Source: Thermoproteota archaeon
Lineage (GTDB): Archaea > Asgardarchaeota > Njordarchaeia > Njordarchaeales > Panguiarchaeaceae
Length of the DNA: 64,000 nucleotides
Direction: 5' to 3'
Assembly: GCA_024720975.1 (NCBI GenBank)
Contig: JANJXX010000001.1
Location: 345,839-409,838, forward strand
The number at the start of each line of letters is the position of its first letter. The first letter of the stretch is position 1. Below, in pieces: positions 17,026-50,703 of this stretch. The notes below the pieces were generated by a model. The model did not search any database. It was not told the DNA's origin and saw only the letters and a list, made by a program, of their open reading frames with translations. The position numbers were made by a program, and so were the translations under genes.

Positions 17026-17607
17026 ATGCTAGGCGTTGGAATCGTCGGCATGCCAGGAAGTGGTAAATCCGCATTAGGTGACGTTGCGAGAAAAAGAGGC
17101 GTCTTGGTTCTCAATATGGGCGACGTCGTCCGCGAGGAAATTATAAACAACGGCCTAGAACTTACATCAGAAAATTTATTGCATTACGCTGAAGAGCTTA
17201 GAAAGAAGCATGGGAGAGGTGCTGTAGCCGTTTTGGTAATAAATAGACTTAAGAAACTTCTCTTCGAAGAGGGAAAAGCAAAGGCTTTACCAAAAGTTGT
17301 TTTAATTGAGGGTCTCAGATCCCCAGAGGAAAAAAACGTTTTTGAAAAGTTCTTTGATAAGTTTTATGTAGTCGCTGTGCATGCTTCTCCCAAGACACGA
17401 TACGACCGCATATTGTCGAGAAATAGACCCGATGACTTCAAGACTATTCCAGAGCTCAAAGAGCGTGATTATAAAGAATTGAGCTTCGGTATAGGTGAAC
17501 TAATGGCTATGGCAGATTTTCACCTAGTGAACGATAACAAACCAGTACACGAATTCATAAAGGAATGCGAGGAACTTATTGAAAAGATACTGAATCTAGA
17601 TTGTTAG
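17026..17607 (+). CDS. COG0237 P-loop kinase (CoaE-like fold)
   Basis: GMPGSGKS, MGDVVRE, IEGLRSPEE, RD..EL..GIG. Confidence 0.85.
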   Translation: MLGVGIVGMPGSGKSALGDVARKRGVLVLNMGDVVREEIINNGLELTSENLLHYAEELRKKHGRGAVAVLVINRLKKLLFEEGKAKALPKVVLIEGLRSPEEKNVFEKFFDKFYVVAVHASPKTRYDRILSRNRPDDFKTIPELKERDYKELSFGIGELMAMADFHLVNDNKPVHEFIKECEELIEKILNLDC

Positions 17608-20354
17608 TTCCTAGTGAATTCCTCTAAAATCCGTTTCCTTATGATGATTAGTAGGTTATCTGATGGTATCTCTAGTTTTCCAAAGATCCTATCTTTTGCT
17701 TCTTTATATTCGGCGCGTAGTTGTTTAAGAACTTCTTTTATGGTATTTCTAAAAGCCTCGTCACCCTTAGCAATGAATATATTCTCTGCAAGCGTCGTGC
17801 TGACTAACAAAATGTTATCTGTTTTGCTCTCTAGTCTATTCACGATATTGAAGAGTGAGTTAAGATCTAGATCAATTCTTTCTAGCAGGAATTTCTTACC
17901 ATCTATACTGACCACTTTATCCGAGACTAGCTTTTCTATGTTGTCTGAAATATACTTCCAGAGTTTTTGGAGTTCATCTTTCTGCCTCTTCCACTCAGAA
18001 AAGAATCTTGATGAAGTTTCTGCAAGCTTCTCTGGTCGTACCTTAAAGACTTCACAAGCCTCGTAGAGATGCCTGTCGCTAGAAATTATATGATCAATTG
18101 CGTATTCACCAACCGTGAATTCTAGTCGAATGATTCCATCATGAATTTTTTTAGAACCTAGAATTTTTATGGGTCCTACGAGAATTGTTTGCGGTAAATG
18201 CGTTCCACCACACGCTTCGACGTCCCAACCATCAATGTTTACTATTCTCAATACAGCTGATGGCACTGCTCCTCCTTGATATATCTTAACGCCAAATTTA
18301 CGCTCTGCGTCAGTTCTATTCATAAATTCTATATAAACTGGTCTATTCTCTAAAACTACCTTATTTGCAAGCTTCTCGATTTCCTTTAATTCTTCAAAAC
18401 TCAGATTTTCATAGTGCGAAATATCCAAATGAGCCTTATCAACCTTTTTTTCTGCACCCATTTGCCATACGTGAGGCCCTAGTACTCTTTGAGCTGCACC
18501 ATTTATTATATGTGTTGCGGTATGGTGACGCATGAGCTGGAGTCTTCTATTCCAGTCGATAATACCCTTTACCTTTCCAGTGTTTTCATGAATCGCTTCA
18601 TTTAGTTCATGTATTATAACGTCTCCTACCTTGAAGACATTTACTACTCTGTATTCCTTACCGCCCGCTATAATTATACCAGAGTCTCCTTCTTGGCCAC
18701 CGCCTCTAGGATAGAAGGCTGTCATGTTCAACACAAGAAATCTATCCTTTGAAAATACAATTTCAGCCTCAAATTCCTTCAGGAACTGATCTTCATAGTA
18801 AAGCTTCCTTGTGTGTGGAAGATTATTTATTTCCTTTCCCAGGAGCTCAACAATCTCGCGCTCAATCGTTTTCCTGTCGGTGCTTTCTACGTCTGGTTTA
18901 TTGTACATTTCCTTAAGCCTATCATAGAAGTCGGATGAAATTTTCACGGTAATTCCTAAATCCAGTTTGTTGGATAAATACTCGACCTCTTCGGGGGGTA
19001 TCCCATAGTTTAAGTATAAGTCCCGTAGTATAGGAAAATCAATGATTTTTTTCTTGGTCTTTCTAGCTATATTCTTGAGCTCCCGAATAGCATTTTGTAT
19101 GGTTTCCAAGAACCTATCCTGTTCTAGATGCCAGATTTTGATGGCTATTTTTTCGATTCCCTTTATCCTGTGAAACGTTCTAGAGAAGTATTCCACGGAA
19201 CGTAAAATTAGCTCATCCCAAGCGATCTCTAGCTGATATTTTTCGGCCAATGAAATTGCTCGCCTTAGAATTGCTCGGAGATTAGCCGCACCCCCAATGT
19301 TAGCCGGTATGCCACCATCGGGTATTGCCATGATAACTGTCTTAACGTGATCTAAGATTGCATACATCGCCTCCAGTGGACCAAATATGCTTCTAAATTC
19401 ATCTTCTGAAATCCCAAGTTTATCAGCAAGAGCCTTTCGAGTTGAACTAAAAATCTCATCGCTTTCGGTTTTAACCATACCTACATAGCGTCCATAGAGG
19501 AGCATTAAATCCTTATCTACTGAAATTCCCAGGTCCTTTTTTAACCATATGAAAATAGGGCCGAATGTGGCTTCATATATAGTTGGAGTTCCTTGTGTAA
19601 ACCATGAGACCCTCTCAAGTCCCCAACCTACATCAAGAACTCTTATTGGTATTCGCTGAAGAGAACCATCAACTATCTTGTACTGCATAAATACTCCGTT
19701 GACTATTTCTAGGCCGTGTGAGAAGGTTTCTAGAGATGGGCCACAATTGCCTCCCCCCTTCCACCAATCCTCTTTATATGTAAGTTCTTCAGGAGGCACC
19801 CCCAGAACTTTTGTCATGAATTCAAAGTTCAATTCCAGATATCGATCTTTCCAGTATCCTCCTTTCCATTTGTCACTGATGAATGCATGCTGACCACCCA
19901 TCGTGAAACTCGATAGATGCCTGCCTGTTTTTCCAATGCGATCAATGTCACTAAATTCGCCTCCAAAGCGAATGCACGGTTGAGGGACGACAAGTGGATT
20001 TGCGGGAGGATCAACATAACCCTCAACAACCCAGGGTTGGAATATAGCTATGCTTGCTATCGTGAAGTATATATCCTCCCTCCACCGAGCTACAACCGGG
20101 TAGTAATCCAGAACTTCATGTCCCCGCTTCTTGAAAAAGTCTAACCAACGTGATATTGTATTATGTATGTCCCAGTGTTCCACTGGATCAAGTCTTCTTA
20201 CAAATCTGTACTCACCCTCACATTCAACATCGCCGCAAGTTTGTCTCTCTTCATTAAGAGTCCAAAAGAAACCGCCGCATTTCGGACATTGCTTCCTGAC
20301 AAAATTTTCGCGTCTGAAAAACTCGTTTTCATATTCCTTAGGATCTACTTGCAT
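17604..20354 (-). CDS. alaS: Alanyl-tRNA synthetase (archaeal type) with atypical tRNA-recognition domain
   Basis: N-terminal Zn motif, YPVVARWR, QPCIR, GGGNCGP, DVGWGLER; editing motifs HHTATH and ACGGTH. Confidence 0.97.
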   Translation of the reverse strand: MQVDPKEYENEFFRRENFVRKQCPKCGGFFWTLNEERQTCGDVECEGEYRFVRRLDPVEHWDIHNTISRWLDFFKKRGHEVLDYYPVVARWREDIYFTIASIAIFQPWVVEGYVDPPANPLVVPQPCIRFGGEFSDIDRIGKTGRHLSSFTMGGQHAFISDKWKGGYWKDRYLELNFEFMTKVLGVPPEELTYKEDWWKGGGNCGPSLETFSHGLEIVNGVFMQYKIVDGSLQRIPIRVLDVGWGLERVSWFTQGTPTIYEATFGPIFIWLKKDLGISVDKDLMLLYGRYVGMVKTESDEIFSSTRKALADKLGISEDEFRSIFGPLEAMYAILDHVKTVIMAIPDGGIPANIGGAANLRAILRRAISLAEKYQLEIAWDELILRSVEYFSRTFHRIKGIEKIAIKIWHLEQDRFLETIQNAIRELKNIARKTKKKIIDFPILRDLYLNYGIPPEEVEYLSNKLDLGITVKISSDFYDRLKEMYNKPDVESTDRKTIEREIVELLGKEINNLPHTRKLYYEDQFLKEFEAEIVFSKDRFLVLNMTAFYPRGGGQEGDSGIIIAGGKEYRVVNVFKVGDVIIHELNEAIHENTGKVKGIIDWNRRLQLMRHHTATHIINGAAQRVLGPHVWQMGAEKKVDKAHLDISHYENLSFEELKEIEKLANKVVLENRPVYIEFMNRTDAERKFGVKIYQGGAVPSAVLRIVNIDGWDVEACGGTHLPQTILVGPIKILGSKKIHDGIIRLEFTVGEYAIDHIISSDRHLYEACEVFKVRPEKLAETSSRFFSEWKRQKDELQKLWKYISDNIEKLVSDKVVSIDGKKFLLERIDLDLNSLFNIVNRLESKTDNILLVSTTLAENIFIAKGDEAFRNTIKEVLKQLRAEYKEAKDRIFGKLEIPSDNLLIIIRKRILEEFTRN

Positions 20355-44893: not shown

Positions 44894-44920
44894 AGGAGAG
44901 GTAGACACACCTAGGGCAAA

Positions 44921-44933
<13 letters not shown>
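44894..44933 (+). other. 5' arm of the 23S processing stem (pairs with 47916-47954), with relaxed BHB motif
   Basis: AGGAGAGGTAGACACACCTAG pairs with CTAGGTGTGTCTACCTCTCCT; GGGC/GCCT helix flanked by AAA and AC(T) bulges; inner helix GACACCGAAGGCA/TGCCTTCGGTGTC. Confidence 0.8.
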
Positions 44934-47928
<2,995 letters not shown>

Positions 47929-48081
47929 GCCTACTAGGTGTGTCTACCTCTCCTAGCATTTCTCCAGCGCTGATTTCCTACTTGCCCTCTCGACTTTGAC
48001 TCGCTACTTTTGATTGCAGAACTTAAAAAGGGAGAATTATAGATACGTTAGGTATAAGTAGCTGTAATTAAGAAGGAAGAA

Positions 48082-48156
48082 GGAGGGGTAGTGTAGGGGT
48101 AGCACGCAGGATTTGCAATCCTGAGGCCGCGGGTTCAAATCCCGCCCCCTCCACCA
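48082..48156 (+). tRNA. tRNA-Ala(UGC) with A3-U70 pair and encoded CCA
   Basis: Acceptor GGAGGGG/CCCCTCC, D stem GTGT/GCAC, anticodon arm CAGGA-TT TGC AA-TCCTG, T arm GCGGG-TTCAAAT-CCCGC, A73, CCA. Confidence 0.92.
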
Positions 48157-48728
48157 TCAATTCTTAGAATCTAATTATCCAAGCAGATTTTCCTTGAGAA
48201 TGTCTCCTTTGTTCTATGCTGTTGGGAAATACGTTATGGGAGATTGATTCCACACCGACTGACGCATTCTAGCTAAACCTTGATTCGCTATGAACACTTC
48301 TTGAGTCTTAAGAACAGGATAACTCTACGCGCATATAAACGTCGGAATATAGAAGTAAGCTATTGCCCTACATTAAGGATCTTCAAAATGCGCAGGACTG
48401 AGAAGTTTAGACACTAAACAAGTTGACCAATATTACAATCCAACTAGGACTAACATTAGAGAGGCGACCGCAAACCGAATAGTGAACAATATAAAAAATT
48501 CGGATTACTCGAGGGCATTCTAGTCATGCTTACTAATATGCTCCTGATTTATCTCTAAATGAATATGCTTTGAAATAGGGGCGAAATTACATTATCAGCA
48601 GCAACTGAAGGACGCTAGCCAATAAGCAAGATGAAAGTATGTATTGTGTAACAACACCACTGCAAAAACAGCAATACCTGCACAATCAAATATATTGCTG
48701 AATGAGTGGAGTTAGAAAGAGAATTAGG

Positions 48729-48753
48729 GGGTATCATGCTCAACATCCGGTCC
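48729..48753 (-). repeat. 3' arm of the 16S processing stem: perfect 25-bp inverted repeat with 50331-50355
   Basis: GGGTATCATGCTCAACATCCGGTCC is the exact reverse complement of GGACCGGATGTTGAGCATGATACCC. Confidence 0.9.
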
Positions 48754-48756
48754 ACC

Positions 48757-50272
<1,516 letters not shown>

Positions 50273-50365
50273 CTGCTTGGCGTGCCTCCCTTTTCCGGGA
50301 GGCATTATCGCCGTGGGACGTTTGAGGCGGGGACCGGATGTTGAGCATGATACCCTTTCCGTTAT

Positions 50366-50427
50366 TTTTGTTGCAGTCCCCGGATGCCCTTACCTTCATT
50401 CTTTTCAGGTGGGCTTTTGGGACTGCC
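50366..50427 (-). ncRNA. H/ACA-like hairpin with K-loop, just upstream of the 16S leader
   Basis: GCAGTCCC/GGGACTGC stem, pocket AAAA/ATCCG, GCCC/GGGC, ACCT-GA-loop-ATGA-AGGT K-loop, ACA 14 nt from the pocket top. Confidence 0.6.
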
Positions 50428-50703
50428 AATAGTATAATACATTGGCTCCTGGTAGCTTTTTTTATTATTGTATATATTATTATTATCATCGTTCATATTT
50501 GTGTTTTTAATTTATTATAAGTCTGCTTGTTTAAACTTTTATTAGATATATATTTTTCTGCAGTGCTGGAAGACTTTGCAGGTTGATGCCGGAAGCTTCG
50601 CAAATATCAGTTGATTTTCATTTTCGGGTGTGTTTATTTTTCATCTCATGTTTTTGAATTAATTATAGGAATAATCTAAAGGGAGAGATTATAGTGCTCA
50701 ACT

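Follow-up and report, generated by a model that had tools for sequence, protein, structure and literature searches.

How does an alanyl-tRNA synthetase (AlaRS) select its tRNA if the acidic residue that reads the G3:U70 wobble pair is missing? This question is raised by the alaS gene of a hot-spring member of the Njordarchaeia (Asgardarchaeota; GenBank assembly GCA_024720975.1), located at positions 17604 to 20354 on the minus strand of the window, i.e. the 64,000 nucleotides of contig JANJXX010000001.1 (positions 345,839 to 409,838 of the forward strand) that were analysed here. Our analysis suggests, with a probability of roughly 60%, that the gene encodes the single intact AlaRS of a Njordarchaeia lineage that swapped G3:U70 for A3:U70, or for U3:A70 in some tRNA-Ala(CGC) genes. 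The 3:70 pair would still be the mark of alanine identity, with the rule now being an A/U pair and not a G:U wobble.

The encoded protein (P0001; 916 amino acids) is a full-length archaeal-type AlaRS. It scored 899.1 bits against the NCBIfam archaeal AlaRS equivalog TIGR03683, above the cut-off of 744.7 bits, and matched the Pfam families PF01411 and PF07973 with 296.8 and 48.1 bits, respectively. Both zinc motifs of the editing site, HTATH at residue 611 (HxxxH) and CGGTH at residue 715 (CxxxH), are intact, in agreement with the initial annotation, and are invariant across the alignment of the class. In the 1.36 Mb genome (29 contigs, 81% complete) no second full-length AlaRS was found, only an AlaX-like editing fragment. 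This stand-alone open reading frame (ORF) of 221 amino acids (L002, G000:C24:48876-49358) is 36% identical to residues 512-672 of the AlaRS.

A reference for the reading residues is the AlaRS-tRNA-Ala complex of Archaeoglobus fulgidus (PDB 3WQY/3WQZ), which shares with P0001 the archaeal-type architecture, the editing motifs and the residues corresponding to Asn359, Tyr449 and Gly453. A phmmer search against PDB sequences aligned residues 5-845 of P0001 to this enzyme (3wqy, E-value 8e-183) with no gaps through the reading motif, and the codons of the reader residues were verified base by base. The minor-groove 3:70-reading peptide Tyr447-Leu448-Asn449-Tyr450-Gly451 (19002 to 19016, minus strand, as are all alaS coordinates below) thus corresponds to Tyr449-Asp450-Ser451-His452-Gly453 of A. 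fulgidus. Leu448 (codon TTA, 19011 to 19013) occupies the column of Asp450, exactly where it had been placed by the initial annotation. In the publications on the A. fulgidus peptide (PMC6055181, PMC6451123), the carboxylate of Asp450 is described to hydrogen-bond to G3's 2-amino group and to reject Watson-Crick pairs. The peptide has been reported to always follow the pattern Y-(D/E)-(S/T)-(H/Y)-G (PMC6451123), and the combination of Asn and Asp was found by Chong et al. in >95% of about 2,500 AlaRS sequences (PMC6055181). P0001 lacks the acidic residue and reads Y-L-N-Y-G, retaining the Tyr and Gly backbone readers. One helical turn ahead of the reader residue, Arg444 (19023 to 19025) replaces Ile446 of A. 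fulgidus.

The major-groove reader is kept as Asn352 (codon AAC, 19299 to 19301; Asn359 in A. fulgidus). The two motifs of P0001 read PANIGGAANLR and RDLYLNYGIPPE, and codons and alignment agree that Ala356-Ala357 (19284 to 19289) stand in place of the Gly363-Tyr364 of A. fulgidus. A displaced acidic reader, for which Asp445 had been named as a candidate, was ruled out, since in the gapless alignment Asp445 corresponds to Glu447 of A. fulgidus, a column that is Glu or Asp in nearly all AlaRS.

The initial annotation had regarded the loss of Asp and the retention of Asn as what an A3:U70 substrate would predict, and this substrate was found. The window encodes a tRNA-Ala(UGC) at positions 48082 to 48156 on the plus strand (ARAGORN prediction and sequence), with the acceptor stem GGAGGGG/CCCCUCC, A3 at 48084, U70 at 48150, A73 and a CCA end that is present in the gene. 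The genome has three tRNA-Ala genes (anticodons GGC, UGC and CGC) on two contigs, and all of them share this acceptor stem and A73, so that none of the isoacceptors carries the G3:U70 pair of canonical AlaRS substrates. A tRNA with A3:U70 is rejected by the A. fulgidus enzyme according to the published description, as relayed in PMC6451123 and PMC6055181. Three hot-spring metagenome studies, independent of each other, yielded contigs that cover positions 48084 and 48150, and these showed no variant at either position. With A3 and U70 present in three genes on two contigs, in the contigs of three studies and in about 20 lineages, an assembly or sequencing artefact was ruled out. The invariant Ala columns of AlaRS itself are still encoded by GCN codons. 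RNA evidence on position 3 was limited to one run, the coverage of which excluded the 5' half of the tRNA.

Among the 46 tRNAs predicted by ARAGORN in this genome (one of which, 195 nt long, is likely spurious), the tRNA-Ala alone depart from G:C at 3:70, and G:U is absent from the acceptor stems of all real tRNAs. Both findings extend to a second genome of the class (G009): the three tRNA-Ala are the sole ones of its 38 tRNAs with a non-G:C pair at this position, and acceptor stems with G:U are again absent. Because the pair is unique in the tRNAs of each of these two genomes and never drifts to G:C, we consider 3:70 to be probably still the mark of alanine identity.

The altered pair is widespread in the class, to which the genome was assigned by the names that NCBI gives to near-identical proteins (Candidatus Njordarchaeia/Njordarchaeales). 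Of the 14 Njordarchaeia species genomes in the collection searched, all of them metagenome-assembled genomes (MAGs) that are 66-91% complete, 12 including the query (G000) contain A3:U70. In 11 of these (G000-G006 and G009-G012) it is the pair found, and G008 combines A3:U70 in tRNA-Ala(UGC) with an additional U3:A70 in tRNA-Ala(CGC). G3:U70 was detected in G013 and in G007, which represents a separate family. One Njordarchaeia family, which includes G009 and G012, has its tRNA-Ala(CGC) about 0.1-1.2 kb upstream of alaS (L006 in G012, L007 in G009, L008 in G013, and L162, L176, L178, L179, L191 and L193). Since enzyme and tRNA are physically linked at these loci, further AlaRS variants could be scored directly on short metagenome contigs. 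The tRNA-Ala(CGC) beside alaS has A3:U70 on five contigs encoding Ile enzymes (L083, P0017, P0010, P0012 and P0018), and U3:A70 beside the Leu enzyme P0019 and the Val enzyme P0011. In the query's genus, tRNA-Ala and alaS are unlinked, and no tRNA was found near the Thr448 enzyme P0007 or the Ile enzyme P0073 within the flanks retrieved. Other Asgard genomes checked have tRNA-Ala with G3:U70. Within the class, about 20 lineages with a total of about 40 tRNA-Ala genes were covered, and neither G:C nor C:G was found at 3:70 in any of them.

Several of the Njordarchaeia tRNA-Ala genes (L043, L065, L079, L083 and L191) are interrupted by short introns (about 13-20 nt) located within or next to the anticodon loop, and two intron-bearing tRNA-Ala genes were mislabelled by ARAGORN as Gly(acc) and Ser(cga).

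To put Leu448 into context, we compared the column of Asp450 in a broader set of enzymes. In 80 archaeal metagenome AlaRS loci it contains D58, E13, K3, V2 and Q1, and the three remaining loci, with Leu or Ile, all belong to close relatives of the query. The 95 non-Njordarchaeia Asgard enzymes (P0027-P0121) show E43, Q31, T12, D2, R2, I2, S2 and V1, and 22 of 24 Njordarchaeia enzymes have Ile or Leu. The Asn corresponding to Asn359 of A. fulgidus is present in 81 of 81 sequences of the archaeal loci and in 119 of 119 sequences of the Asgard comparison. Leu or Ile at this position is hence rare and restricted to close relatives of the query among the archaeal loci, and non-acidic residues as such are the rule in Asgard archaea. 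Val enzymes co-occur with G3:U70 tRNA-Ala in five lineages, namely in three Odin-like genomes (G014/G025/G035) and in G017, G036, G007 and G013; Arg (G015) and Gln (G027) likewise occur together with G3:U70. Since non-acidic reader enzymes coexist there with G3:U70, the published generalisation to Y-(D/E)-(S/T)-(H/Y)-G fails for the Asgard phylum. For the inference in the initial annotation this means that the co-occurrence of the missing Asp, the kept Asn and A3:U70 is real, but that A3:U70 is neither the specific nor a sufficient outcome of losing Asp. The refutation named in the initial annotation, a non-acidic residue being common where G3:U70 is kept, applies to aliphatic Val, and not strictly to Leu.

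The reader residue belongs to a larger block that is remodelled in the core of the class. This block comprises a one-residue insertion at position 436 that other Asgard enzymes do not have, Lys, Arg or Gln in column 444 (Ile, Val or Leu in other Asgard), Asn in column 449 (Ser in other Asgard) and an aromatic residue in column 450 (Arg, Lys or Asn in others). Column 356 contains Ala, Tyr or Cys in the Njordarchaeia and Gly in 95 of 95 other Asgard enzymes. The peptide hence takes the form Y-(L/I/V)-N-(Y/H/F)-G, compared with the usual Y-(D/E)-(S/T)-x-G, with Tyr447, Gly451 and Asn352 being invariant in the class. G007 does not have the remodelled block. The replacement of Gly-Tyr by Ala-Ala, which the initial annotation had counted among the substitutions of G:U-reading residues, does not hold up in this role: Tyr357 is replaced by Ala in 5 of 24 Njordarchaeia sequences, all from the small subclade of the query, and the change is not tied to the state of the tRNA, given that Tyr persists in most lineages with A3:U70.

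AlaRS gene trees from quick searches, with SH-aLRT supports of 84-100 and rooted on an Odin-like outgroup, place the G017 enzyme and the G007-like enzyme as nearest outgroups, both with Val and G3:U70. G013 is nested within the class, whereas U3:A70 appears in two lineages that do not group together. Parsimony on the tree requires four changes at 3:70, for instance one from G:U to A:U, one reversal and two from A:U to U:A. Because the nearest outgroups are Val enzymes with G3:U70, we infer that the carboxylate loss predates the tRNA switch, for which it looks permissive. This order agrees with data from A. fulgidus, where wild-type tRNA is still charged by the variants D450A and N359A, with a loss of specificity seen only for substitutions of Asp450 (PMC6055181).

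Together, these observations are consistent with the following course of events. An ancestor shared with G3:U70 lineages would have lost the acidic reader, which may have relaxed the wobble requirement in a permissive way. On the core Njordarchaeia stem, the class-specific remodelling could then have been accompanied by the change from G3 to A3 and have permitted a Watson-Crick A/U pair to be bound productively. The other tRNAs of these thermophiles probably have G:C or C:G at 3:70 throughout; therefore, any A/U pair at this position would stay a unique alanine mark. The resulting enzyme might tolerate A:U, U:A and probably G:U, with drift among the three and not to G:C, which would explain the nested G3:U70 genome (G013) and the two U3:A70 lineages. 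Leu448 would be part of a remodelled reading surface together with the basic residue at 444, the insertion at 436 and the non-Gly residue at 356 beside the kept Asn352. It is plausible that an aliphatic side chain opposite a minor groove without a 2-amino group contributes to recognition; as the determinant, it is a proposal only.

It is nevertheless worth considering whether the exchange of Asp for Leu at the minor-groove reader is by itself the specific adaptation to A3, with the aliphatic chain filling the space and Leu448 as the main determinant. In the linked enzyme-tRNA pairs, all Leu and Ile enzymes (16 lineages) occur with A:U or U:A and never with G:U; column 448 is one of 7 out of 916 columns that parted A3:U70 from G3:U70 genomes in a first alignment of 30 genomes (Ile/Leu versus Val or polar residues), and the nested G013 pairs Val with G3:U70. 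A strict rule that assigns Val to G:U and Ile or Leu to A:U was however broken by the Val enzyme P0011, which adjoins a U3:A70 tRNA-Ala (the G008 bin also has an A3:U70 tRNA-Ala), and was weakened by the Ile enzyme P0073, which is 92% identical to the enzyme of G036, a genome with G3:U70 tRNA-Ala on its contig. Furthermore, the column is occupied by Thr in P0007, many Asgard lineages with G3:U70 have likewise lost the acidic residue, and the lineages are related, so that the association does not consist of independent observations. The exchange of Asp predates the change in the tRNA and extends to more lineages, and therefore cannot alone explain it. We regard Leu448 as main determinant to be unlikely.

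Less probable still is that alanine identity moved away from 3:70 to other elements of the acceptor stem or tRNA body, as in mammalian mitochondria, with A:U being an unselected leftover and the peptide being under relaxed constraint. The occurrence of A:U, U:A and G:U at 3:70 within one class would fit such a shift, for which human mitochondrial AlaRS provides a precedent (PMC6451123). It would also fit the C-terminal domain of about 165 amino acids (17604 to 18100 in the query), which has diverged: the Njordarchaeia enzymes are full length but do not match Pfam DHHA1 (PF02272), whereas most other Asgard AlaRS do. In A. fulgidus this domain touches the tRNA elbow (PMC6055181). On the other hand, unselected drift would be expected to reach G:C in a thermophile with nearly pure G:C pairing in its other acceptor stems, and the fact that G:C is strictly avoided at 3:70 suggests that the pair is still read. 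The invariance of Tyr447, Gly451 and Asn352 points in the same direction, and as the D-arm and the 4:69 pair vary between families, no alternative conserved element specific to tRNA-Ala is evident. Finally, A3 could be deaminated post-transcriptionally to inosine, resulting in an I:U wobble without a 2-amino group, the geometry of which the enzyme would still read. The point in its favour is indirect, in that it would fit the loss of the carboxylate that reads the 2-amino group. A tRNA deaminase with activity on position 3 is not known to us, although no search aimed at one was made. The U3:A70 variants would moreover be beyond such a rescue, U3:G70 being inactive in classical systems (PMC6451123), and we consider deamination very improbable.

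Several points weigh against our preferred interpretation that the pair at 3:70 is still read under a changed rule. G013 has the remodelled block together with G3:U70, so that no set of residues tracks the tRNA state perfectly. The order of events is derived from moderately supported quick gene trees (SH-aLRT 84-96) with long outgroup branches and depends on the outgroup root. Since the MAGs are only 66-91% complete, additional tRNA-Ala genes may have escaped notice. Lastly, both the charging of A3:U70 tRNA-Ala and the reading of 3:70 by this AlaRS are deduced from sequence.

According to a review from 2023, every non-mitochondrial tRNA-Ala known has the conserved G3:U70 (PMC9976931), and our literature searches returned no report on a natural A3:U70 tRNA-Ala in archaea, Asgard archaea or Njordarchaeia. 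The closest known parallels are human and mouse mitochondrial AlaRS, which are likewise natural enzymes with a cognate tRNA lacking G3:U70 and a peptide diverged from Y-(D/E)-(S/T)-(H/Y)-G (PMC6451123). The YDSHG peptide fits the minor groove of the G:U pair, and its divergence in mammalian mitochondrial AlaRS goes along with G3:U70-independent recognition (PMC6451123). In these mitochondria the divergence of the peptide is complete (CGDLG or SGNLG), and G3:C70 and a translocated G5:U68 are found in the tRNA. The Njordarchaeia, in contrast, are free-living archaea with a full tRNA set that keep the Tyr, Gly and Asn in an only partly diverged peptide and have an acceptor stem without any G:U and with a unique A/U pair at 3:70. 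Drosophila mitochondrial AlaRS (translocated G2:U71) and the split AlaRS of Nanoarchaeum equitans (G:U-independent minihelix charging, PMC11392972) also depart from strict G3:U70 dependence, but their tRNA-Ala acceptor stems still hold a G:U pair that the Njordarchaeia tRNA-Ala do not have. The closest relatives, i.e. the AlaRS of other Asgard lineages (Odin-, Heimdall-, Loki- and Jord-like), share 41-50% identity and in many cases the absence of Asp (Glu, Gln, Thr, Val or Arg instead). They differ in G3:U70 wherever it was checked, in having Gly at 356, Ser at 449 and a hydrophobic side chain in column 444, in the missing insertion at 436 and in a recognisable DHHA1 domain.

It may be speculated that the Njordarchaeia are the first free-living lineage with an altered alanine 'second genetic code', in which AlaRS positively selects A:U or U:A at 3:70, for example through an aliphatic reader that senses a groove without a 2-amino group, and which evolved via a surviving dual-specificity intermediate similar to G013. 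We consider this tentative, at slightly less than even odds. G3:U70 is the textbook tRNA identity element, with the earlier exceptions coming from animal mitochondria; an Asgard class operating on A3:U70 or U3:A70 would thus represent a natural experiment in changing an identity rule without a collapse of translation. The close relatives that keep G3:U70 supply Val, Ile, Leu and Thr reader variants with which the change could be dissected, and a G013-like intermediate, if it indeed has dual specificity, would render an identity switch in progress directly testable. The components could serve for orthogonal AlaRS/tRNA pairs, and there may be consequences for expressing Asgard genes and tRNAs in heterologous hosts. 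Annotation rules built on Y-(D/E)-(S/T)-(H/Y)-G and G3:U70 need revision.

A few minor observations concern individual loci. The alaS gene of G004 (L012, G004:C10:52759-55469) consists of two adjoining ORFs of 597 and 349 amino acids with a break near residue 577, to be explained by a frameshift, by an error of assembly or by a truly split gene. In the region 44894 to 50430 of the window, tRNA-Ala(UGC) lies directly downstream of a highly conserved rRNA-like stretch. Contig depth from many organisms stacks at positions 47754 to 47860, and the 3' half of this tRNA is also widely shared.

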